Positions 2,811 through 42,999 of a stretch of DNA of 42,999 bases are shown in pieces; the first letter of the stretch is position 1, and the number at the start of each line of letters is the position of its first letter. The DNA lies in the sequence record OZ035738.1. One strand, 5' to 3'. A model generated the notes under the pieces. It was given only the letters and a program-made list of their open reading frames with translations, was not told the origin of the DNA and did no database searches. The translations under genes were made by a program, and so were the position numbers. This stretch comes from Kagunavirus LM08P2.

Positions 2811-3887
2811 ATGCTATTAACTTTAGCGTCACAGGGTTTATCTATGAGCTTACTTACATCCCTAATCAGCCACCAGATATGGCTGCAACGCGCCGCATCC
2901 GGTGAAGTGAAAGACCTCGCGCCGTTCATTCAGGAAATGCGGGACGAAATCAAACGGCAGGTGCTGTTATTCGGTGACGACGGTCGCAGCACCGAGCGGC
3001 TGAATAAACTGTTACGCGACCTCGAAGAAGCACTGGCAGGGCTTACAGGCGACTGGCAAACAAAGCTGACAGAAGACCTTAAGGAACTGGCGGCGTATGA
3101 GGCTGAGTGGAACGTAAAAACGCTGACGGCTAACGTTAACGCGGAATTTGTTACACCTACCGCTGAGCAGGTGTGGGCCGCTGCTGAGTTTCAACCATTA
3201 TCGTTAAGCGACAAGCCCGTCGATTTCACTAAGCTGATGGATGGCTGGGGTGAAACGGAAGTCGCGCGCCTGGTAACCGGCGTTAAGATGGGCTTTGTCC
3301 AAGGCCAGACGACACGGCAGATTGTTAAGAATGTTGTTGGCGCTGGTGGGCTGGCGGACATCTCCGAGCGTAACGCAGCTACGGTAATCCGCACCGCGCT
3401 GTCGCACGTGTCCAACGAAGCACGTAACGAGACGTACCGTCAGAACGACGACATCATCGAGAAGTACGAGTGGGTGTCAACGCTGGACAGCCGTACCAGT
3501 ACGATTTGCAGAGCCAGGGACGGAATGACGTGGGAAATTGGTAAAGGGCCAATGCCGCCAGCCCATCCGAATTGTCGGTCGTGCACGGCTCCGGTAATCA
3601 GTTCAGAGTTCGACTTCCTCGATAAAGGCGCAAAACGGGCGGCTAAGGGTGCAGATGGCGGTACTCAGGTAAACGCAGACACCACTTATTACGAGTTTCT
3701 GAAACAACAACCGGCGTGGTTTCAGGACCAGGCGCTCGGCCCGGTGCGAGGTAAGATTTTCCGTAACAGCGGTATATCGCCGGAAGAGTTTCGCGTAATA
3801 TCTGTAGATGGTTTCGGGAATCCGCTCACGCTTAAGCAGATGGCGGAACTCGATAAACGTGTTGCTGATTATCTGAAAGGGGATTAA
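2811..3887 (+). CDS. Head morphogenesis protein, Mu F / SPP1 gp7-like
   Basis: 358 aa; C-terminal region LDSRTSTICRARDG...HPNCRSC resembles the conserved Mu-F family core; position after portal. No clear SD; start could be ATG at 2844. Confidence 0.55.
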   Translation: MLLTLASQGLSMSLLTSLISHQIWLQRAASGEVKDLAPFIQEMRDEIKRQVLLFGDDGRSTERLNKLLRDLEEALAGLTGDWQTKLTEDLKELAAYEAEWNVKTLTANVNAEFVTPTAEQVWAAAEFQPLSLSDKPVDFTKLMDGWGETEVARLVTGVKMGFVQGQTTRQIVKNVVGAGGLADISERNAATVIRTALSHVSNEARNETYRQNDDIIEKYEWVSTLDSRTSTICRARDGMTWEIGKGPMPPAHPNCRSCTAPVISSEFDFLDKGAKRAAKGADGGTQVNADTTYYEFLKQQPAWFQDQALGPVRGKIFRNSGISPEEFRVISVDGFGNPLTLKQMAELDKRVADYLKGD

Positions 3888-4348
3888 TGATGGGCTTTTT
3901 CAAAGTAACTGATGTACCTTCACGTCGTGTAGTCCAGTACGCCCGAGTGTCTGGCTCTGGCGAGAACGTGGTATTTATTGAAGACGAAAGTGTACTGGGT
4001 GCGCCAGTGGACGATATGCCGTTTGCAGATAAAACCGGTATTGCGTTACCCGCTGCCGGCATGCTTTACGAGATTCCGTATCTGGCGGACGCTGGTGACG
4101 TGTACTTCTCTGTGCAACCGCAGGACGTTGAACTGGCAGACGGCAGCGCGACTCTCACTGTCGAAGTTAAGGCGGGCAAAGCACCACACGCGCTGACCTG
4201 GTACAAAGACGGTAAGGAAGTGGTAAACGCCCCGGAAGAGGCTTTGTCTCTTACGGTTAACGCGGCAGGCGAATACTTCGTTAAAGTTACTGATGCCGAT
4301 GGAGTAGAGGCCGTGAGTAAAGCGGCGAAGGTTACTAAGCCTGAATGA
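3887..4348 (+). CDS. Ig-like domain protein (possible head decoration)
   Basis: 153 aa; C-terminal LTWYKDGKEV...GEYFVKVTDADG pattern typical of bacterial Ig-like domains; TAATG overlap with upstream gene. Confidence 0.45.
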   Translation: MMGFFKVTDVPSRRVVQYARVSGSGENVVFIEDESVLGAPVDDMPFADKTGIALPAAGMLYEIPYLADAGDVYFSVQPQDVELADGSATLTVEVKAGKAPHALTWYKDGKEVVNAPEEALSLTVNAAGEYFVKVTDADGVEAVSKAAKVTKPE

Positions 4349-4350
4349 TA

Positions 4351-4378
4351 AAAGGCCCCATTACGGGGCCTTAGTTTT
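4351..4378. terminator. Bidirectional intrinsic terminator between convergent genes
   Basis: AAGGCCCC-ATTAC-GGGGCCTT hairpin flanked by A-run upstream and T-run downstream, between + gene ending 4348 and - gene ending 4377. Confidence 0.6.
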
Positions 4379-4622
4379 ATCGCACTCTCATAAATAGCTT
4401 ACCTTTGCGCTGTAACAAATCCATGCCAACTGCACCTTCACCAGATTTGTTCGGACGGCGCATTAAACTAAAGTTCCATACTCTAGCTTTTGAAGCATCT
4501 TTCGCATTGCACACCCAAAGTCTGCCGCTTTCTCTTAGGTCAAATAAGTCCGATATACTGAAATTATTAACCGGTATGAACCCGCTAATGAACTCACGTT
4601 CGCAACTAGGTAATTCCTGCAT
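4377..4622 (-). CDS. Hypothetical protein, opposite-strand insert in head module
   Basis: 81-aa ORF on minus strand with strong SD (GAGGAGGG) upstream of ATG at 4622 and its own promoter at 4649-4677. Confidence 0.5.
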   Translation of the reverse strand: MQELPSCEREFISGFIPVNNFSISDLFDLRESGRLWVCNAKDASKARVWNFSLMRRPNKSGEGAVGMDLLQRKGKLFMRVR

Positions 4623-4648
4623 ACACCCTCCTCGTTTCGATGTAATGA

Positions 4649-4677
4649 ATAGTACCCTATTATATTGGTGTGTGCAA
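4649..4677 (-). promoter_or_regulatory. Sigma70-like promoter, family 2 (TTGCAC-N17-TACTAT)
   Basis: Read on minus strand: TTGCACACACCAATATAATAGGGTACTAT; near-identical copies at 13790-13818(-), 36393-36421(+), 37829-37857(+). Confidence 0.5.
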
Positions 4678-4690
4678 ACTATTTATTTAC

Positions 4691-4743
4691 GTATTCCAGT
4701 TATTCCACTCAATTGTAAATGTTGGAATAAACTATTCGAATAG
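4691..4743. promoter_or_regulatory. Cluster of TGGAATA/TATTCCA repeats upstream of promoter at 4744
   Basis: TATTCCA at 4692-4698 and 4701-4707 with inverted partner TGGAATA at 4723-4729; similar TGGAATA pair at 5485-5512. Confidence 0.4.
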
Positions 4744-4772
4744 TTGACTTTTCACTAAAAATGTGCTAAGCT
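4744..4772 (+). promoter_or_regulatory. Promoter TTGACT-N17-TAAGCT (TG-extended), copy 1
   Basis: TTGACTTTTCACTAAAAATGTGCTAAGCT; nearly identical sequence at 36084-36112. Confidence 0.5.
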
Positions 4773-4779
4773 CCACCTG

Positions 4780-4978
4780 AGCTTGTGAAGTATGAACAAG
4801 CGACCGCGGCGCGGGCAGGTAACGGAGCGGGACGTAAGTCCTGAGTGTAGTTACGCTGACGCGTTCGGAAGGGCCATACTCTATTGCTTGTGTAAAAAGT
4901 AACTGGTTTACTGAGATTACGCCGTTTCTATGTTTAAATGATAAGGACTAGCGCCCCGCTTTATGGCGGGGCTTTACT
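4780..4978 (+). ncRNA. Candidate structured noncoding RNA / leader element, copy 1
   Basis: About 110 nt downstream of the promoter is conserved with the copy at 36119-36230; contains hairpins with compensatory differences between copies; no ORF conserved between copies; ends at a GC-rich hairpin plus T-run at 4951-4978. Confidence 0.45.
4951..4978 (+). terminator. Intrinsic terminator
   Basis: GCGCCCCGC-TTTATG-GCGGGGC followed by TTTACTT, immediately upstream of the spanin RBS. Confidence 0.55.
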
Positions 4979-4996
4979 TATCGAGAAAGGAGAAAC

Positions 4997-5383
4997 ATGA
5001 ATCTTAAAGCAACTGTCGTAGCAGGAGCATGTTTCATCATCCTGTTATACACGCACGGCTACTATCAATACCGCAGCGGCTGGAACGGAGGCAGGGCTAA
5101 TCTAGTTTCGCAGCAACAGCAGAAAGCACAGGCTGAGTTAGCGAAGAAAACACAACGGCAGCAGCAGGACGAATCAAAGGCCGCCGCCGCTGACAACGAA
5201 GGCAAGACGAAATCAGAGGTGATTACCCGTGAAGTCGTTAAGTACATTAAAACGCCTGGCCGCAGCGTGTGCACTTTCGACGATGCTCGCGTCCTGCTCA
5301 AGTCCCGCGCCGTCGCAAACGCCAATTCCATCCCCGGATACGACGATGATGCAGCCGCCATGCAAACTGGCCGCGCCAAGTAG
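4997..5383 (+). CDS. i-spanin (Rz-like inner membrane spanin)
   Basis: 128 aa; N-terminal hydrophobic TMD (ATVVAGACFIILLY) then Q/A/K/E-rich predicted coiled coil; overlapped by a lipoprotein ORF in another frame; strong SD AAAGGAGAAA. Confidence 0.55.
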   Translation: MNLKATVVAGACFIILLYTHGYYQYRSGWNGGRANLVSQQQQKAQAELAKKTQRQQQDESKAAAADNEGKTKSEVITREVVKYIKTPGRSVCTFDDARVLLKSRAVANANSIPGYDDDAAAMQTGRAK

Positions 5384-5492
5384 CGATGCCGATGAGGATT
5401 TAGCCATTGACGTTCAGAACACAGAATGTGTACGGCAACTGCGTCTGAAAGTGTTCATGTTGCAGGATTACGTGAGGAATATTCTGGAATAG
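5229..5492 (+). CDS. o-spanin (Rz1-like outer membrane lipoprotein)
   Basis: 87 aa from GTG start with SD GAGGTGA; signal peptide ending in lipobox LASC; proline-rich mature region; begins inside the i-spanin gene in the +1 frame and extends past its stop. Confidence 0.55.
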   Translation: MKSLSTLKRLAAACALSTMLASCSSPAPSQTPIPSPDTTMMQPPCKLAAPSSDADEDLAIDVQNTECVRQLRLKVFMLQDYVRNILE

Positions 5493-5526
5493 TTGCCTTG
5501 CATGTTGGAATAATTTATTCTTGACA
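5475..5526. promoter_or_regulatory. TGGAATA repeat cluster and promoter-like region upstream of scaffold/capsid genes
   Basis: GAATATTC palindrome 5477-5484, TGGAATA at 5485-5491 and 5506-5512, TTGACA at 5521-5526; shares TGTTGGAATAA...TATTC...TTGAC with 4720-4749. Confidence 0.35.
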
Positions 5527-5574: not shown

Positions 5575-6276
5575 ATGAATCGTTTTTTACGTTATCCGTT
5601 CCAGGAAGAAGCTGGGGCAGAAGATAAAGCTGGTGGCGGTGACGCGCCGAAAATGTTCACCGCTGAAGAAGTTCAGGCGCTGATTGAGAAAGAAGTTGCC
5701 GGGCTTAAGGCCAATCAGGAAGCATTGCTGGCGGAGAAGAAAGAAGCCGCTCGTAAAGCAAAAGAGGCCGAAGAAGAACGGCAGCGCGCGCACCAGGAGG
5801 CGTTAAAAGCCGCTGGTAAGATGGACGAGTTCGAAAAGACGATTCGTAGCCAGTATGACCCGGTGTTAGCCGAGAAAGATGGTCGCATCTCCAAAATGGC
5901 AGAGCGTATCCTCGGCAGTGAACGTAAAGCGGTGTTAGGCTCTTTCGCGGGCGACTTTATTACCCCGGAAGCAGTAGACATTCTTGCTCCGTTCGTTAAG
6001 ACTGAGTTCGAAGGCGATGACGTGGTTACTAAGTTTGTTGGTGCGGATGGCAACGTAATCACGACTGACCCGGAACAGTTCCGCAAATACCTGCGTGAAC
6101 ACAAAGCATTTTCGCATTTGATTAAAGCAAATGCAGCTTCCGGCGGCGGGGCTTCCGGTAGCAAAGGCGGCGGGGCCGCACCAGCGTTTAAAGACATGAG
6201 TGAAGCGGAGCGTTTAGCTCTGTATAAATCGAACCCTGCCGAATTTGAACGGCAACTTAAAGCCCTGAGGAAATAA
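5575..6276 (+). CDS. Scaffolding protein (putative)
   Basis: ORF track start 5521 is TTG; first ATG at 5575. Ala/Glu/Lys-rich, predicted coiled coil (EKKEAARKAKEAEEERQRAHQEALKAAGK), immediately upstream of major capsid gene. Confidence 0.5.
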   Translation: MNRFLRYPFQEEAGAEDKAGGGDAPKMFTAEEVQALIEKEVAGLKANQEALLAEKKEAARKAKEAEEERQRAHQEALKAAGKMDEFEKTIRSQYDPVLAEKDGRISKMAERILGSERKAVLGSFAGDFITPEAVDILAPFVKTEFEGDDVVTKFVGADGNVITTDPEQFRKYLREHKAFSHLIKANAASGGGASGSKGGGAAPAFKDMSEAERLALYKSNPAEFERQLKALRK

Positions 6277-6278
6277 TA

Positions 6279-7328
6279 ATGGCAATTACCACTATCGGCG
6301 ATATCGTAACTGGCAACATCCCGGTCCTGGCGTCTTATATGACCGAGGACCCGGTAGAAAAAACCGCGTTCTTTCAGTCAGGTATTTTGACCCCGACTCC
6401 GTACGCTGCCGAGATTGCTCGCGGCCCGTCCAACGTCGCTAACATTCCTTTCTGGAAAGCGATTGATACCTCTATCGAGCCTAACTACTCGAACGACGTA
6501 TACCAGGACATCGCCACCCCGCGTAACGTGCAGACCGGTGAGATGATGGCCCGCGTTGCATACCTGAACGAAGGTTTCGGTCAGGCGGACCTGACTGTCG
6601 AACTGACCAGCCAGAACCCGCTGCAATCTGTGGCTTCTCGCCTGGATAACTTCTGGCAGCGCCAGGCACAACGCCGTCTTATTGCTACCGCGCTCGGTCT
6701 GTACAATGACAACGTAGCCGCTACCGACGCATACCACGAGCAGAACGACATGGTAATCGACGTGTCTGCTACTCTGGGCTTCGATGCGGGCGCGTTCATC
6801 GACGCTACCCAGACTATGGGTGATGCGCTGATTGGCAACGGCGGTGAAGTGCTGGGTGCTATCGCGATGCACAGCTTCGTATATGCGCAGGCCCGTAAGC
6901 AGCAGCTTATTGACTTCATCAAAGACGCTGACAACGACACCATGTTTGCCACCTACCAGGGCTACCGCGTGATTGTTGACGACAGCATGACCGTAGTCGG
7001 TACCGGCCCTAGCCGTAAGTTCATCTCCATCATCTTCGGCAACGGCGCTATCGGTTACGGTGAAGGTAATCCGTCCAACCCGCTGGAATACGAACGTGAA
7101 GCGTCTCGCGGTAACGGCGGCGGCGTAGAAACCCTGTGGACCCGTAAGACCTGGTTGCTGCACCCACTGGGCTACAGCTTCACCAGCGCAGTAATCACCG
7201 GCAATGGCACCGAGACTACACCGCGCTCCGCTTCCTGGCAGGACCTGGCGAACGCCTCCAACTGGAACCGTGTTGTTGAACGTAAGCATGTACCGATTGC
7301 CTTCCTGGTAACTGGTGTCGGGGCTTAA
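6279..7328 (+). CDS. Major capsid protein
   Basis: 349-aa ORF after scaffold gene with SD GAGGAAA; followed by a strong intrinsic terminator, typical of a highly expressed capsid gene. Confidence 0.7.
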   Translation: MAITTIGDIVTGNIPVLASYMTEDPVEKTAFFQSGILTPTPYAAEIARGPSNVANIPFWKAIDTSIEPNYSNDVYQDIATPRNVQTGEMMARVAYLNEGFGQADLTVELTSQNPLQSVASRLDNFWQRQAQRRLIATALGLYNDNVAATDAYHEQNDMVIDVSATLGFDAGAFIDATQTMGDALIGNGGEVLGAIAMHSFVYAQARKQQLIDFIKDADNDTMFATYQGYRVIVDDSMTVVGTGPSRKFISIIFGNGAIGYGEGNPSNPLEYEREASRGNGGGVETLWTRKTWLLHPLGYSFTSAVITGNGTETTPRSASWQDLANASNWNRVVERKHVPIAFLVTGVGA

Positions 7329-8089: not shown

Positions 8090-8269
8090 ATGGCAGATAA
8101 TTATGTAATCCGCGAAAAGTACACCCACGTTGGTGTTGTTGACGGTCAGGTAATGCCTGTTCGCGGTGTTGTAGAACCGGATGAGCTTGTGGCAACGCAA
8201 CCAGATAACGAAGAAGCGCACAACAACGGCGGTGGTACTAAACGTCGTCGCCGTAAGTCAGAGGAATAA
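8090..8269 (+). CDS. Small hypothetical protein (59 aa) with basic C-terminus
   Basis: Hand-translated ORF below the 60-aa track cutoff; SD AAGGAAAGG upstream of ATG 8090; ends GGGTKRRRRKSEE. Confidence 0.35.
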   Translation: MADNYVIREKYTHVGVVDGQVMPVRGVVEPDELVATQPDNEEAHNNGGGTKRRRRKSEE

Positions 8270-8272
8270 TTT

Positions 8273-8785
8273 ATGCCTCTAATCGTGGAAACGGGTGAAA
8301 TCGTCCCTAATGCTGACAGTTACGTTAGTCTGGCTGACGCCCGCGCGTTAGCGGCTAATTATGGCCTGGAGTTGCCCGCGGATGATACCGCCGCAGAGGT
8401 GGCCTTGCGTAATGGTGCAACGTATGTTGGGTTAGCAGAACCCCAGATGTACGGTCGTCGTGTATCTGCCGAACAGTCACTGGCATATCCTCGCACTGGT
8501 GTAACGTTGAATGGTTTCCCAGTAGCTAACAATGTCATCCCGAAGCAGGTGATTCTTGCGCAGGTAATCGCCGCCGTTACCTATGGCGCGGGTACTGAGG
8601 TGCGGGCTAACTCTGACGGACGTTTGGTACAGACCGAGCGCGTAGAGGCCACAGTAACCGTCACCTACTTCAACAACGGCAACAGCGGTGCCACGACCGC
8701 GATTACCGCTGCGGATGACGCCTTACGCCCGTTACTGTGCGGCGGTCTTAACAATGGCTTCTCGTTTAATGTGCGCCGGGGGTAA
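8273..8785 (+). CDS. Hypothetical head/neck protein
   Basis: 170-aa ORF in head-to-tail joining region; function by position only. Confidence 0.4.
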   Translation: MPLIVETGEIVPNADSYVSLADARALAANYGLELPADDTAAEVALRNGATYVGLAEPQMYGRRVSAEQSLAYPRTGVTLNGFPVANNVIPKQVILAQVIAAVTYGAGTEVRANSDGRLVQTERVEATVTVTYFNNGNSGATTAITAADDALRPLLCGGLNNGFSFNVRRG

Positions 8786-10153: not shown

Positions 10154-10566
10154 TGGGCTACTTTGAGGACTTAACCAAAGCGTTCGATGTGCCGCTGGTA
10201 GCCTTCGGAACCGCCAACGGCATCAAGGTTGCGCTTGAAAACATCGACGCGCCGACATCAACCGATACGCCGTATCTGGCGAGTTACATGTTGCTGGCGG
10301 ATACGGAACAGGCTGATTTGTTCTTCACGGAACAACGCGCCGGTGTTTATCAGGTCGACATTAACTACGCATCGGTGAAAGGTAGCGCGCCAATCAATAA
10401 AATGGCAGACTTACTTAACACGGCGTTTAAAGCAGGTAAGTCATTTTCACGTAACGACATCTGCGCCGAGGTTCAATCGGTAAGCCTGGGGCCGCTGATT
10501 GTAGAAAACGGATGGGCCAAAAGACCATTGTCAATTAACTTTATTGCATTCACCAAGAGGCTGTGA
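10150..10566 (+). CDS. Hypothetical tail completion protein
   Basis: 138-aa ORF overlapping neighbours, between neck and major tail genes. Confidence 0.4.
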   Translation: MMGYFEDLTKAFDVPLVAFGTANGIKVALENIDAPTSTDTPYLASYMLLADTEQADLFFTEQRAGVYQVDINYASVKGSAPINKMADLLNTAFKAGKSFSRNDICAEVQSVSLGPLIVENGWAKRPLSINFIAFTKRL

Positions 10567-10568
10567 AT

Positions 10569-11735
10569 ATGGCTACAACTCCTTTTAAGGGCGCGAATAC
10601 CGCGCAATTCTATGTGGCGGAAGTCACCCCGGGCGTAACACCGACTAACCCGGTATGGTCGCCGTTGCGTAACACAGGTGGCGTTCCCGCTATCACCCGC
10701 GACACGCTGACATCCAACGAACTGGACGGCAGCCGTGAAACTACATCCATCCGCACCGGTAACAAACAGGTTAGCGGTGAATACGCGATCGAGCTTAGCT
10801 CTAAAAGCCAGGACGACTGGCTGGCGGGCGCTTTAGGTTCCACGTGGCAATCAGGTGTCTCTCTGTCAGGGCTGTCGATTACCGTCGCGCCTGCAGGTAA
10901 GACATTTACACGCTCCACCGGTAGCTTTATTTCTGACGGCGTTGAAGTAGGCGACCTGATTGCGTTTACCGACTTAACCGGCGACAACGCAAAACCATTT
11001 ATCGTCACTGCGGTAGAGGCACTGGTAGTGACCGGTGCAGGCATCCAGCACACTCTCACCACAGAGACCGCTACTACTGCTGCTAAGACAGGCGACAAAC
11101 TGGAAACCGGTAGCCAGTGTAAGACGTTCTCTATTCTCACCTGGTACAAAGGCCAGTGCGGCGGGACTGACGCATACACGTTAACCAAAGGCGTGGAAGT
11201 TTCTGGTTTTACCGTTGAGCAGGCCGTTAACGCGATGGTAACGGGCAGCTTCCCGTTCATCGGGCGCAGCCAGGAGATTCTCACTACGCCACCGTCTGGT
11301 TCTGACTTCTCCTCTGTTACGTTTGGTGACGAGCCGTTCTCCTCGGTCGACGTTTCCGTGTTCGATGGCTCTACGCCGTTGCGTTGCGACAGCCTGACCA
11401 TCACCAACGATAACAGCGCGTCCGCACAGTTCGAACTCGGCAACTCTAACGTTGCGTTTGTGGAGCGTAGCCGCGCGGCTAACACCTTCTCCATCTCAGG
11501 CAAGCTGTATGACATGGCTATGATTCAGAAGTTTATCAACGAGCAGCAGGTAGAGATTAACTCTATTCTGGCGGGGGTAAACGGAGCTATGTCTTTCAGC
11601 CTGAAACGCGCAGAGCTCACGGCGGTTACACCAGAAATATCCGGCCCGGAATCAATTACCCAAAGTATAGAAGGGCAGTCCACAGGCAACCAATACCAGT
11701 CGTCTATCGTAATTCAACGTATTAGTTACGCATAA
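10569..11735 (+). CDS. Major tail protein (putative)
   Basis: ORF track start 10563 is GTG; ATG at 10569 with SD AAGAGG; about 390 aa; followed by strong terminator; precedes chaperones and tape measure. Confidence 0.5.
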   Translation: MATTPFKGANTAQFYVAEVTPGVTPTNPVWSPLRNTGGVPAITRDTLTSNELDGSRETTSIRTGNKQVSGEYAIELSSKSQDDWLAGALGSTWQSGVSLSGLSITVAPAGKTFTRSTGSFISDGVEVGDLIAFTDLTGDNAKPFIVTAVEALVVTGAGIQHTLTTETATTAAKTGDKLETGSQCKTFSILTWYKGQCGGTDAYTLTKGVEVSGFTVEQAVNAMVTGSFPFIGRSQEILTTPPSGSDFSSVTFGDEPFSSVDVSVFDGSTPLRCDSLTITNDNSASAQFELGNSNVAFVERSRAANTFSISGKLYDMAMIQKFINEQQVEINSILAGVNGAMSFSLKRAELTAVTPEISGPESITQSIEGQSTGNQYQSSIVIQRISYA

Positions 11736-13761: not shown

Positions 13762-13789
13762 AATTATTTCCTCAGTAAGTTACAAGTGA

Positions 13790-13818
13790 ATAGTACCCTA
13801 TTATATTGGGGTGTGCAA
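13790..13818 (-). promoter_or_regulatory. Sigma70-like promoter, family 2
   Basis: On minus strand TTGCACACCCCAATATAATAGGGTACTAT; drives the 13761-to-11764 cassette. Confidence 0.5.
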
Positions 13819-36083: not shown

Positions 36084-36112
36084 TTGACTTTTACTTAAAA
36101 ATATGCTAAGCT
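36084..36112 (+). promoter_or_regulatory. Promoter TTGACT-N17-TAAGCT (TG-extended), copy 2
   Basis: TTGACTTTTACTTAAAAATATGCTAAGCT, nearly identical to 4744-4772. Confidence 0.5.
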
Positions 36113-36118
36113 TCACTG

Positions 36119-36353
36119 AGCTTGTGAGATATCGCAAGCGACCGCGGAGCGGCAGGGAACGCAACGCGTGCCATTAGGCACTTGAGTGTAGTTCCGCTGG
36201 CGCTTTCGGAAGGGCCAAAGTCTATTGTTAATCCCGCCTAAATACCCAAGTCACTGATAATTAAAAGTTTCTATAGTTGCCGTAAGCAAGGTGGAGAGTA
36301 CTTCACTCCGCTGGGGTGGGCTAACGCCCACCCACTGCGTTGCGTACTCTTTT
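36119..36353 (+). ncRNA. Candidate structured noncoding RNA / leader element, copy 2
   Basis: Conserved with 4780-4886 over about 110 nt; no ORF; GC-rich hairpin GGGTGGGC-TAAC-GCCCACCC at 36313-36333 enclosed by GAGAGTAC/GTACTCT and followed by TTTT. Confidence 0.45.
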
Positions 36354-39206: not shown

Positions 39207-39515
39207 TTGGATAAATTTACTGAAACAGTGACGGGCTGGCTTCTCGCTGCCGCACTCGCCGGAGGGGTCATCGGACTACGACAACATAAGTCCGTTATTT
39301 CTGGCCCTATCGACGGCTTCTGCTTCATCGCTACTGGTTTCGCCTGCGCCGTATTTGGCGCCCCTCTTGCAGCTCAATGGTTCGGTATCACGGGCGACCG
39401 TGAAATCGCTGGCCTGGGCTTTATCATCGCTATTCTCTGGATGCCTATCTATTCCCGCCTCTCCGGTATCGTCGCCGGGGAATACATCTCACGTCGAGGA
39501 GGCCCGGATGAATGA
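39207..39515 (+). CDS. Holin (three predicted TMDs)
   Basis: 102 aa with three hydrophobic segments; TTG start 6 nt after SD GGAGGA; immediately upstream of endolysin. Confidence 0.5.
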   Translation: MDKFTETVTGWLLAAALAGGVIGLRQHKSVISGPIDGFCFIATGFACAVFGAPLAAQWFGITGDREIAGLGFIIAILWMPIYSRLSGIVAGEYISRRGGPDE

Positions 39516-39780
39516 GCTATTCTGGTTCGCCGTAATGTTGGCAATCGGGGGCGCATCGCTGTTTAATGTGTATCACCCCTGCGTGGACGACGGATTATTT
39601 GGTCGGGTGCTCTATATCCTGACTGCTATCGTCTGCGCTGCCGGATGCATCCACCTGTTACATGGCAGCATGTCGCCAACGCTGCCTGAGACATTAATCA
39701 CATTAGTCGCGCTGCGCCAGATTCGTCAGGCGTGGCTGTCATACGGAGGGCATAAGCGTGTCTCGAAACATTTCAGATAA
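39508..39780 (+). CDS. Second small membrane protein of lysis cassette (holin/antiholin-like)
   Basis: ATG 39508 with SD GGAGG; two hydrophobic helices; between holin and endolysin. Confidence 0.4.
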   Translation: MNELFWFAVMLAIGGASLFNVYHPCVDDGLFGRVLYILTAIVCAAGCIHLLHGSMSPTLPETLITLVALRQIRQAWLSYGGHKRVSKHFR

Positions 39781-40243
39781 TGGATTGCATTTCACCGCTG
39801 CGTTCGAGGGATTCCGCGGAACTGCGTACCGCGCTACACCGAATGAGAAGTACCTGACTATTGGGTACGGAAGCTATGGCCCGCATGTTAAGGCTGGACA
39901 GACCATCACACCAGGACAGGGCTTGCTGTTACTGAATCGCGATATGGCTAAGGCTGTAGCTGCGGTTGATGCAGCGGCACACCATTCATTAACACAGGCG
40001 CAGTTCGATGCAGTGTGTGACCTGGTGTATAACGCGGGCGCCGGCGTGATTGCGGCTACTACAGGCACGGGTAAGGCCCTGCGTTCCGGTGATATTCCGA
40101 CGCTGCGGGCTAAGCTGACGCTGTTCATCAACCAGAACGGCAAACCGTTACTCGGCCTGCGTCGCCGTACCGCAGGCCGCCTGGCGCTGTTCGATGGTAA
40201 GCCGTGGCAAGAGGCTGAGGCTATCGGGAGGGCTGTTAAATGA
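39758..40243 (+). CDS. Endolysin, GH24 lysozyme (T4/lambda R-like)
   Basis: 161 aa; N-terminal LHFTAAFEGFRGTAYRATPNEKYLTIGYG matches the phage lysozyme catalytic region; probable GTG start. Confidence 0.75.
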   Translation: MSRNISDNGLHFTAAFEGFRGTAYRATPNEKYLTIGYGSYGPHVKAGQTITPGQGLLLLNRDMAKAVAAVDAAAHHSLTQAQFDAVCDLVYNAGAGVIAATTGTGKALRSGDIPTLRAKLTLFINQNGKPLLGLRRRTAGRLALFDGKPWQEAEAIGRAVK

Positions 40244-40401: not shown

Positions 40402-40476
40402 ACCAATTGACACCTAAGACTAATCCGACGATACTTAAATCACCTCCTGTTCCATCCCTCTGCTCTCCAGTTTTAT

Positions 40477-40506
40477 CCCGGCCCTGGCCCAGCCGGGATT
40501 TTTTTA
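40477..40506 (+). terminator. Second intrinsic terminator
   Basis: CCCGGC-CCTGGCCCA-GCCGGG followed by ATTTTTTTAT. Confidence 0.6.
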
Positions 40507-40527: not shown

Positions 40528-40556
40528 TTGACTATTACCATCGACCCTATTATATT
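40528..40556 (+). promoter_or_regulatory. Sigma70-like promoter TTGACT-N17-TATATT
   Basis: TTGACTATTACCATCGACCCTATTATATT, 30 nt upstream of the 40590 gene. Confidence 0.45.
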
Positions 40557-41834: not shown

Positions 41835-42067
41835 TTACCAGCATCCCTAAACTGATTGAAGAGTACGGAAGTATGTCGGAGACTTGCCGACAAACCGGTA
41901 TCTGCGAGATGACGATTGCCAAGTACAGCAAAGACGTGAACTGCGAGCGCCACGTAATTTATAACAATCGTCTGATGACGCATGTTAAGACAAGCCCGGT
42001 ATTATTCACGCGCCGTGGTATCACTAAAACAGAGCAACGCGTTGCTAGAGAGGAGAGTGGGGGATGA
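41831..42067 (+). CDS. Putative DNA-binding protein
   Basis: TTG start after SD AAAGGAGAG; SETCRQTGICEMTIAKYSKD resembles an HTH. Confidence 0.4.
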   Translation: MITSIPKLIEEYGSMSETCRQTGICEMTIAKYSKDVNCERHVIYNNRLMTHVKTSPVLFTRRGITKTEQRVAREESGG

Positions 42068-42264
42068 GCGAAAAACTATTGTTACTTATGCTGCATACGC
42101 TTCTTGACGACAACGGGCAGGTGGTATTCCAGTTTATCGGGCGCGATGACCTCCTAATCGACGTCTCTGATGGAACATTTGCTATTGGCGACGAGTTTGT
42201 AGAAAGAGGGGATGCGTTCCAGTATCTAAGCGATAATTACGACGTACTGGTAGATATTTGCTGA
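42064..42264 (+). CDS. Highly acidic small protein
   Basis: 66 aa with many Asp/Glu and no basic cluster. Confidence 0.4.
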   Translation: MSEKLLLLMLHTLLDDNGQVVFQFIGRDDLLIDVSDGTFAIGDEFVERGDAFQYLSDNYDVLVDIC

Positions 42265-42369
42265 TGAGACTACTAATCATCCCTAACGCCTGGACCATTC
42301 CCGTAGCTAACGACCATTACGGCGGTGATGGTAAAAGAGCACCACGACACGGCCTATACAACTGATACA

Positions 42370-42393
42370 AGCCCTCTACGGAGGGCTTTTCTG
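42370..42393 (+). terminator. Intrinsic terminator
   Basis: AGCCCTC-TACG-GAGGGCT followed by TTTTCTG. Confidence 0.6.
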
Positions 42394-42486
42394 TACATCC
42401 CTCCCAATCCCCCTATATAATCCCTTTAGACGCGTAGGGCGCGTCTGGTGCGCTCTGATGGTCAGACGCATATGCAAGGGGATTCT

Positions 42487-42999
42487 ATGAAGCTGAAACT
42501 CAAGCGGCCATCGCCAGAGGTGGTGCAAGCTGCACATGAAGAAGCTGTTAGCGCAAACCGTCGCCGTAAACGACCGCGCGGTAAACAGAGCCTTTATCAA
42601 TCATCCCGTAATTCCGCTGCGTTGTGGGACCCGGACTATTGCGACGAGTTAATCGAGTTCTTCGACCGCACGTCGTGGGAGCTTGTGCCAACGTCTAAGG
42701 GTGATGAACGTCCTCTTATTCAGGATAAGCCCCCGTCACTGGCTCGCTTCGCCTTACACATCGGCGTTACTATCCCGATTATTAAGCTGTGGCTGCGCGA
42801 GATTCCCGCATTTGCAGAAGCCTGGGAGACCGCCCAGGCACTGGAAGAGGCATACTTCACTGAGACGGGAGCGGCTGGCATCTCCGCTACGTTTGCTGCC
42901 GCGAAACTTGGACTTGGCAAAGAGAAACCGGTTGAGTCCACCGAAGAAACGGCACCGACCGAGATTATTTTCAGTGTCGCAGAGCCTGTAGGTAAAATC
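42487..42999 (+). CDS. Terminase small subunit (putative), 3' end beyond window
   Basis: ATG 42487 with SD AAGGGGA; open to the last base with no stop; contains HTH-like SLARFALHIGVTIPIIKLWLREIP; if the window is circularly joined the frame stops at positions 31-33, overlapping terL ATG. Confidence 0.5.
   Translation, partial: MKLKLKRPSPEVVQAAHEEAVSANRRRKRPRGKQSLYQSSRNSAALWDPDYCDELIEFFDRTSWELVPTSKGDERPLIQDKPPSLARFALHIGVTIPIIKLWLREIPAFAEAWETAQALEEAYFTETGAAGISATFAAAKLGLGKEKPVESTEETAPTEIIFSVAEPVGKI

Follow-up and report, generated by a model that had tools for sequence, protein, structure and literature searches.

The largest described family of overlapped two-component spanins, 'Jersey', comprises 27 members, including K1G, K1H and K1ind1-3 (Kongari et al. 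2018, PMC6139136) as well as Jersey, SETP3, SE2, HK578, SSL-2009a and SO-1 (Kongari et al. 2018, BMC Bioinformatics 19:326). The overlap in phage Jersey amounts to 155 bp and the o-spanin cysteines at positions 45 and 67 are conserved, and a "separated" version with an 8-bp overlap has been described for FSL SP-031 (PMC6139136). Genetic separation of the spanins from holin and endolysin was reported in the announcement of phage Schulenberg (PMC6763661) and likewise in the papers on Golestan (PMC7203180) and fBC-Eco01 (PMC9825357). Both the spanin pair and its split layout are already known for this group of E. coli/Salmonella phages.

Better-known systems provide further points of reference. 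Lambda Rz/Rz1 and P2 LysB/LysC also combine a type II inner-membrane protein with a small, Pro-rich lipoprotein of the outer membrane whose gene is in the +1 frame, with periplasmic cysteines and presumed membrane fusion after wall degradation in common with the pair described below. The lambda genes are embedded whereas the P2 genes are overlapped. In T4, the spanins PseT.3/PseT.2 are encoded away from the holin (t) and endolysin (e) genes and thus provide a precedent for dispersed lysis functions, although they have a separated (non-overlapping) architecture and another genomic context (PMC6139136).

Here we compare these systems with a locus of Kagunavirus LM08P2, using the whole 42,999-nt stretch of DNA that was analysed (hereafter the window). 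We estimate a probability of about 0.9 that positions 4997-5492 encode an overlapped i-spanin/o-spanin pair of the 'Jersey' family, predicted to be the sole outer-membrane disruption system of the phage. The pair matches that family in homology, the 155-bp overlap, Cys45/Cys67, the build of the i-spanin and its position, and nothing substantial differs. The P2 pair shares the overlapped arrangement, but contrary to both lambda and P2, the LM08P2 spanin genes do not form the end of a holin-endolysin cassette, and no similarity to the lambda proteins is detectable at the Pfam level.

Results and discussion

Overlapping genes and predicted products

The features of the locus and of the holin-endolysin region are collected in Table 1. 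The o-spanin reading frame is offset by +1 relative to the i-spanin ORF, shares 155 bp with it and continues for 109 nt beyond the i-spanin stop. This agrees with the preliminary description, which had proposed an overlapped pair with a GTG-initiated lipoprotein gene in the +1 frame extending past the i-spanin stop: ORFs were found at exactly these positions. A transmembrane segment in the first protein and a lipoprotein signal in the second were likewise borne out by rule-based pattern and hydropathy checks.

Table 1. Positions of genes and sequence elements in the LM08P2 window
Feature	Position	Strand	Description
MuF-like head morphogenesis gene	2811-3887
Hoc-like decoration gene	3887-4348
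Bidirectional terminator after Hoc	4352-4372		terminator scan
81-aa gene, no family	4377-4622	-	variable slot, different cargo in other phages
Copy of repeated motif TGAATAGTACCCTATTATATT	4646-4677		serves minus-strand gene 4377-4622
Putative sigma-70-type promoter, extended -10	4744..4772	+	TTGACT-N14-TGC-TAAGCT; duplicate at 36084-36112
Structured RNA element, ~117 nt	4773..4889	+	paralogue at 36113-36230
G+C-rich hairpin terminator	4953..4972	+	GCCCCGC-TTTAT-GGCGGGGC, then TTTACTTATC (weak T run)
Shine-Dalgarno of i-spanin	4987..4992	+	AAGGAG, by direct reading of the sequence
Predicted i-spanin gene	4997..5383	+	ATG, 128 aa, N-terminal transmembrane anchor ~residues 3-19, Cys92 in periplasmic domain
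Shine-Dalgarno of o-spanin	5216..5222	+	GAGGTGA, within i-spanin coding sequence
Predicted o-spanin gene	5229..5492	+	GTG, 87-aa precursor, +1 frame, lipobox LASC (Cys23)
Scaffold gene	5575-6276		ATG at 5575
Major capsid gene	6279-7328
Holin or antiholin (first of two)	39207..39515	+	phrog_2359, E 2.9e-29
Second holin	39508..39780	+	phrog_2508, E 5e-32, residues 52-141 of ORF 39355-39780
Soluble (non-SAR) lysozyme-type endolysin	39758..40243	+	PF00959, E 1.2e-25
Terminator after endolysin	40483-40497		~240 nt non-coding DNA in between

The sole hydrophobic segment of the i-spanin is N-terminal (LKATVVAGACFIILL) and reaches a Kyte-Doolittle value of 2.3 over 15 residues, with the maximum at residues 3-17. 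Lys4 precedes the segment, given as residues 3-19, and the protein has the features of a type II inner-membrane protein. Beyond the anchor, the sequence is polar, with many Gln, Ala and Lys residues, and it contains Cys92. The i-spanin matches phrog_2536 ("Rz-like spanin") over residues 1-127 with E 2.3e-55. A low-confidence, single-sequence AF2 model (mean pLDDT 60.8, pTM 0.26) places helices at residues 3-64, 69-84 and 94-107. A Pfam search with both spanins returned no match above threshold, the only hits being sub-threshold (DUF2514, E 0.011).

The o-spanin starts with MKSLSTLKRLAAACALSTMLASC followed by SS, i.e. a basic n-region, a hydrophobic core and the lipobox LASC ending in Cys23. 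The residues at +2 and +3 are Ser-Ser, without an inner-membrane retention signal; as +2 is Ser and not Asp, the lipoprotein is predicted to be sorted to the outer membrane. The +2 residue in the o-spanins of relatives is S, Q, N, R, A or G and never D. Of the 65 aa of the mature protein, 8 are Pro. Cys45 and Cys67 (precursor numbering), together with Cys92 of the i-spanin, are the periplasmic cysteines of the pair. PHROGs matches were obtained for phrog_1267 (E 8e-18, residues 8-86) and phrog_5672 (E 3.6e-30, residues 41-87). When the whole window was scanned in six frames for lipoprotein signals in ORFs of at least 40 aa, only the o-spanin ORF was recovered besides one antisense artefact, namely two nested starts of one ORF inside the gene at 10563-11735.

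Each of the 52 related o-spanin sequences retains a start codon (GTG, except for ATG in 7 Jerseyvirus loci), a Shine-Dalgarno sequence and a working lipobox. The lipobox itself varies between LASC, LSAC, LTSC, MSAC, LSGC, LNGC and ITGC. Among Kagunavirus sequences it occurs in two registers, ..STMLASC (Cys23) and ..LLTLSAC (Cys22), at unchanged total length, which indicates selection on the lipobox.

Homologues of the i-spanin were detected by tblastn in 625 phage records, chiefly from Salmonella (363) and Escherichia (209) phages. Identity of the protein is 100% with its counterpart in phage AV104, 91-95% with those of most Kagunavirus relatives and 62-77% with most Jerseyvirus i-spanins, including those of Jersey, SE2, L13, FSL SP-101 and vB_SenS-Ent1. 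For the i-spanins of SSL-2009a and SO-1, the tblastn alignments covered 29-41% of the query.

Start codon of the o-spanin gene

All 36 Kagunavirus-type sequences have GTG as the codon at 5229, preceded at a distance of 7-8 nt by GAGGT. The GAGG at this distance from the GTG or ATG start of the o-spanin gene is kept in Kagunavirus and Jerseyvirus loci alike. Still, a different second gene is found in several records. If the true product were the 48-aa form initiated at an ATG (5346-5492), there would be no outer-membrane lipoprotein and the pair would not be a canonical spanin. We regard this as very improbable. The short form is what the records of Schulenberg, fBC-Eco01 and S532 carry, with o-spanin genes of 144-147 nt, and it corresponds to phrog_5672, a 47-residue family that covers residues 41-87 of the o-spanin only. 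It is also in line with the nucleotide diversity per codon position, which follows the i-spanin frame over 5229-5345 and turns to the o-spanin frame pattern only at ~5346. This diversity pattern is evidence against the upstream GTG and does not independently prove selection on the part of the +1 frame that encodes the signal peptide.

Without an export signal, however, the short product, which starts with MMQPPC, could not enter the periplasm. No stop codon interrupts the +1 frame from 5229 onwards in any overlapped-type relative, and all of these relatives retain the start, the GAGG, the basic n-region, the hydrophobic core and the lipobox cysteine. In signal peptides and Pro/Ser/Thr linkers, constraint acts on the composition instead of the sequence, which explains the periodicity result. 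We thus read the codon-position pattern as weak sequence constraint on the signal peptide and the Pro/Ser/Thr linker, and from the alignments the GTG start is judged right overall. The numbering used by Kongari et al. (Cys45, Cys67, 155-bp overlap; PMC6139136) also fits the long form: as the long-form values of LM08P2 are identical to theirs, their curated o-spanin must be the long form.

The Schulenberg pair (QEG06797/QEG06798) is from the same genus and the same locus as that of LM08P2, but its recorded o-spanin is the 48-aa ATG form as opposed to the 87-aa GTG form given here. Such discrepancies are common, as Kongari et al. (2018) listed 64 o-spanins with wrong annotated starts and a further 196 that had been left unannotated, with wrong start codons being the commonest spanin annotation error (PMC6139136). 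In the S532 record, the i- and o-labels of the pair are swapped, and phrog_5672 was built from 47-aa o-spanin fragments. Many database records thus truncate the o-spanin past its lipoprotein signal or exchange the two names, and annotation pipelines and phrog_5672 spread the error. The GTG start in the preliminary description is an improvement over many GenBank records, whose 48-aa form is devoid of a signal peptide.

Genomic setting and conservation of the split layout

When the final 400 nt of the window are joined to its initial 400 nt, the resulting 800 nt align without interruption to 22 related contigs. The window thus represents an entire Kagunavirus (Guernseyvirinae) genome that was linearised a short distance upstream of terL. 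Many Kagunavirus genomes of 42-45 kb, such as GZMU_E2010, hz69, AV104, RP180, Golestan and Schulenberg, share 94-98% identity with the region, and many related Kagunavirus genomes label the two genes as i-/o-spanin or Rz-like spanin. On the circular or concatemeric map, with everything on the plus strand, two holins and the endolysin are followed by a terminator, seven small genes of unknown function and then terL, portal, MuF, Hoc, a gap, spanins, scaffold and capsid.

The preliminary description had placed the pair in the head module, far from holin and endolysin, directly behind a duplicated element and its terminator, and had called this separation unusual. Most of this picture stands. The pair lies between the MuF-like/Hoc-like genes and the scaffold/major capsid genes, PHROGs and Pfam matched two holins and an endolysin at 39207-40243, and both the duplicated element and the terminator (4953-4972) directly upstream of the spanins are real. 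The loci are apart as well, but the distance was overstated: from the endolysin stop to the i-spanin start it is 7.75 kb on the same strand of the circular map (7.2-9.1 kb in 22 related contigs) and not 34 kb, a separation due to where the genome was linearised. The term "unusual" has to be dropped, as the layout is the rule across the clade, published, and kept in 50/50 related loci.

These 50 loci comprise 47 IMG/VR contigs plus Schulenberg, S532 and PhiSTP2. The spanin pair is directly upstream of a scaffold homologue (66-99.6% identity) in each of them, and downstream of MuF-like and Hoc-like genes in every locus whose flank extends far enough. PhiSTP2-type phages have the "separated" version of the pair with an 8-bp overlap. 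Outside the subfamily, the circular record of Dhillonvirus SSL-2009a shows the spanins at 4625-5066, directly after a head morphogenesis gene, and holins plus endolysin at 41862-42872, leaving a gap of 6.65 kb to the spanins. Judged from these comparisons, the split arrangement is old and stable and no oddity of Kagunavirus LM08P2.

The surroundings of the endolysin were inspected for a second spanin. No u-spanin, embedded pair or any other ORF with a TMD or lipobox adjoins the endolysin in the window, and the spanins are not immediately downstream of the endolysin as in a contiguous lambda-type cassette (SRRzRz1). The endolysin has no N-terminal hydrophobic segment. With the lipoprotein scan and the endolysin surroundings combined, the pair at 4997-5492 is the only spanin candidate in the genome.

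Promoter, structured RNA and terminator upstream of the spanins

The spanin genes are preceded by a putative promoter, a structured RNA element and a terminator (Table 1). The promoter pattern has two matches in the window versus 0.00 expected, and it is annotated as "host promoter" in fBC-Eco01. The authors of the fBC-Eco01 study list the TGAATAGTACCCTATTATATT motif, found further upstream, as a predicted phage promoter consensus (PMC9825357). The RNA element is built from a 5' hairpin and a long three-part hairpin, followed by the invariant GAAGGGCC. The terminator hairpin ends 24 nt before the i-spanin ATG, so any transcript reaching the spanins must traverse it. It is conserved with compensating changes in Jerseyvirus (GCCCGGC..GCCGGGC) and annotated as a terminator in fBC-Eco01. 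Pairing of GAAGGGCC with the 5' arm of the terminator was considered as an antiterminator and rejected; only 4 bp are possible, and these are not conserved in Jerseyvirus.

With a covariance model derived from ten Kagunavirus copies, the RNA element was found upstream of the spanins in all Kagunavirus/Jerseyvirus loci searched (E 1e-32 to 1e-7); only some Kagunavirus genomes have the second copy. In LM08P2, the paralogous region (36084-36230) heads a rightward gene block with the holins and endolysin. In the alignment, which was fitted to the covariance model so that the pairing figures are biased towards structure, 95.4% of cells are paired (30-50% in slid controls) and 13/31 pairs are changed on both sides (0-3 in slid controls), values that 0/500 shuffles reach. 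The raw sequences show three apical hairpins (GGGAC/GUCC, GUGCC/GGCAC and GGGCGC/GCGCCC) and a C-G/U-A/A-U series at one pair. Rfam searches of the whole window and of 4700-5000 produced no relevant match, whether at the gathering threshold or at E<5, and a tRNA/tmRNA gene search of the window was negative. An ORF of 36 aa (4792-4902) lies inside the element. As the paralogue has no start codon for it, this ORF is probably not a gene. Databases mostly label the region as a hypothetical protein of 36-39 aa.

Lambda PR'-6S RNA-tR', StxS and HK022 put resemble the present arrangement in having a promoter, a short structured transcript of ~200 nt and a terminator directly before late (lysis and head) genes; the likeness is one of analogy only, as the RNA element has no sequence or Rfam relation to lambda 6S, StxS or HK022 put. 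StxS, the Stx-phage counterpart of the short 6S transcript, is a small RNA (PMC7547250). By this analogy, the spanin and scaffold/capsid genes might be gated by a conserved RNA device between promoter and terminator, which we consider doubtful. The RNA, or a phage factor binding it, would then control read-through of the terminator as in lambda PR'/tR' or HK022 put. Late expression of spanin and head genes would, if this were true, be set by antitermination, and the paralogue could tie the two separate lysis loci to one regulatory logic. Alternatively, the element may be a free-standing phage small RNA present in two copies.

Proposed role in lysis

In the proposed mechanism, the N-terminal helix of the i-spanin would hold the protein in the inner membrane, and a domain that is largely helical in the low-confidence model would extend into the periplasm. 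After translation from the internal GTG and export, the o-spanin would receive its lipid at Cys23 and proceed to the outer membrane. By analogy with lambda and T4, the C-terminal parts of both proteins may bind each other across the periplasm, with disulfides via Cys92 of the i-spanin and Cys45/Cys67 of the o-spanin probably stabilising the complex. The complexes would accumulate late and stay inert while caged by the peptidoglycan mesh, again as in lambda and T4. Lysis would be triggered by the holins (39207-39780), followed by degradation of the wall by the soluble endolysin (39758-40243), and the spanins would act last. Fusion of the inner and outer membranes by the spanins, as inferred for the lambda and T4 systems, would complete the process.

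A pair that sits in the head module and outside the lysis cassette could also serve another purpose, for example superinfection exclusion by a Cor/Llp-like lipoprotein or envelope-associated assembly. No experimental test of this spanin family, by complementation or lipid labelling, was found in the papers searched, which leaves room for such a role. The proteins also diverge faster than the flanking scaffold and capsid: between Kagunavirus and Jerseyvirus, identity is 62-66% for the i-spanin and 60-72% for the o-spanin versus 89-90% for the scaffold and 89-93% for the capsid protein, as would suit an interaction with the host. Faster divergence is, however, equally expected of envelope-contacting proteins under mainly structural constraint, and the T4 spanins are genuine yet unlinked from holin and endolysin. 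Moreover, a non-lysis function would leave the phage without spanins despite a canonical holin, a soluble endolysin and a Gram-negative host, and the pair shows all defining sequence features of two-component spanins, including the spanin-specific overlapped +1 architecture. A role outside lysis therefore appears highly unlikely, and we retain the assignment as spanins, which draws on sequence features and on homology to curated predictions.

Conclusions

The spanin pair of LM08P2 is of little weight in itself, as the feature had already been published for this well-sampled group of phages and is confirmed here. The structured RNA is the only part of the spanin neighbourhood that may be new and repay further work. 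The position in the head cluster illustrates a principle: the wall, and not their own timing, restrains spanins, so late expression is all they require and their genes can drift away from the holin. Because the holin would set the timing and the wall would restrain the spanins, linkage to the holin gene would not be required, and late expression as the only need would account for a stable site in the late head-gene cluster across Kagunavirus, Jerseyvirus, other Guernseyvirinae and Dhillonvirus.

Divergence and constraint at the spanin locus

The spanin locus lies at a recombination boundary in the head module, as revealed by six related contigs (L007, L010, L018, L028, L033 and L034) in which the genes 5' of the spanins are still >90% identical to those of the window, whereas the scaffold 3' of them is just 66-68% identical and, in the same region, similarity between the capsid gene and that of the window is not detectable. 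The capsid protein of L007 is a different one, of 322 aa. Comparison of Kagunavirus with Jerseyvirus (loci L041-L051), in which window 4997-5492 was set against its flanks, shows that the spanins themselves, with identities of 62-66% for the i-spanin and 60-72% for the o-spanin, are far more diverged than their neighbours, the scaffold at 89-90% and the major capsid protein at 89-93%. Within the 155-bp overlap of the two genes (5229-5383), the more strongly constrained frame switches at ~5346. Variable sites 5' of this point fall on i-spanin third positions. Those 3' of it fall on o-spanin third positions, and the last ~12 residues of the i-spanin thus appear weakly constrained.

A mosaic spanin locus was found in the related phage locus L040 (10001-10589), where an o-spanin of PhiSTP2 type, its lipobox being ITGC, comes after an i-spanin of Kagunavirus type. 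A degenerate vestige of the overlapped signal peptide (KSLSTSGRLAAMSALS...) persists in the +1 frame and is closed by a stop. In appearance the locus is intermediate between the two architectures, overlapped and separated, that Kongari et al. discuss. Misannotation of the o-spanin is widespread, several records giving a 47-48-aa ATG form that is devoid of the signal peptide; PHROG family 5672 is made up of such 47-48-aa fragments, and in the record of phage S532 the labels "i-spanin" and "o-spanin" are exchanged.

Leader RNA, cargo slot and candidate regulatory elements

The features identified around the spanins and the lysis genes are compiled in the table. Copy A of the structured RNA was present 5' of the spanins in every Kagunavirus and Jerseyvirus locus searched, while copy B, found in some genomes only, heads the rightward gene block with holin and endolysin. 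Covariation is strong, with 95.4% of cells paired and both sides changed in 13 of 31 pairs, figures that lean towards structure as the alignment was fitted to the covariance model. Rfam holds no family for this RNA. The 36-aa ORF located entirely within it lacks a start codon in the paralogous copy and was therefore probably called as a gene in error.

The gap between the Hoc-like gene and the spanin leader (4349-4743; compare 1944-2506 in L001 and 950-1540 in L052, two related phage loci) is a cargo slot, occupied by a minus-strand gene that differs from phage to phage: the window has an 81-aa ORF of no family, Schulenburg a sliding-clamp-like gene, and fBC-Eco01 two small genes.

Features of the window and problem loci of o-spanin annotation
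Feature	Position	Strand	Remarks
Bidirectional terminator	4352-4372		one border of cargo slot
Repeated promoter-like motif TGAATAGTACCCTATTATATT	4646-4677		other border of cargo slot; further copy at 13787-13818
Palindrome GGAATAAnnTATTC	4724-4737		just 5' of -35 of RNA promoter
Palindrome GGAATAAnnTATTC	5507-5520		just 5' of a TTGACA, between o-spanin stop and scaffold start
Palindrome GGAATAAnnTATTC	8263-8276		at start of gene 8273-8785
Extended -10 promoter, duplicated	4744-4772; 36084-36112		each directly 5' of one RNA copy
Structured RNA, copy A	4773-4889	+	~117 nt; conserved; covariation
Structured RNA, copy B	36113-36230	+	paralogue of copy A
36-aa ORF	4792-4902	+	given as "hypothetical protein" by many related records in GenBank
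Sigma-70-like promoters, two, good	40407-40435; 40528-40556		either side of intrinsic terminator
Intrinsic terminator, clean	40483-40497, then ATTTTTTTAT		3' of endolysin
o-Spanin annotation problems	L001 3219-3365; L052 2219-2365; L003 3001-3496

The palindrome GGAATAAnnTATTC occurs six times, both strands counted, against an expectation of 0.18, and could serve as operator to a regulator of the late genes. The intrinsic terminator and its flanking sigma-70-like promoters indicate that the holin and endolysin genes probably form a transcription unit of their own, to which the downstream packaging and head genes do not belong.
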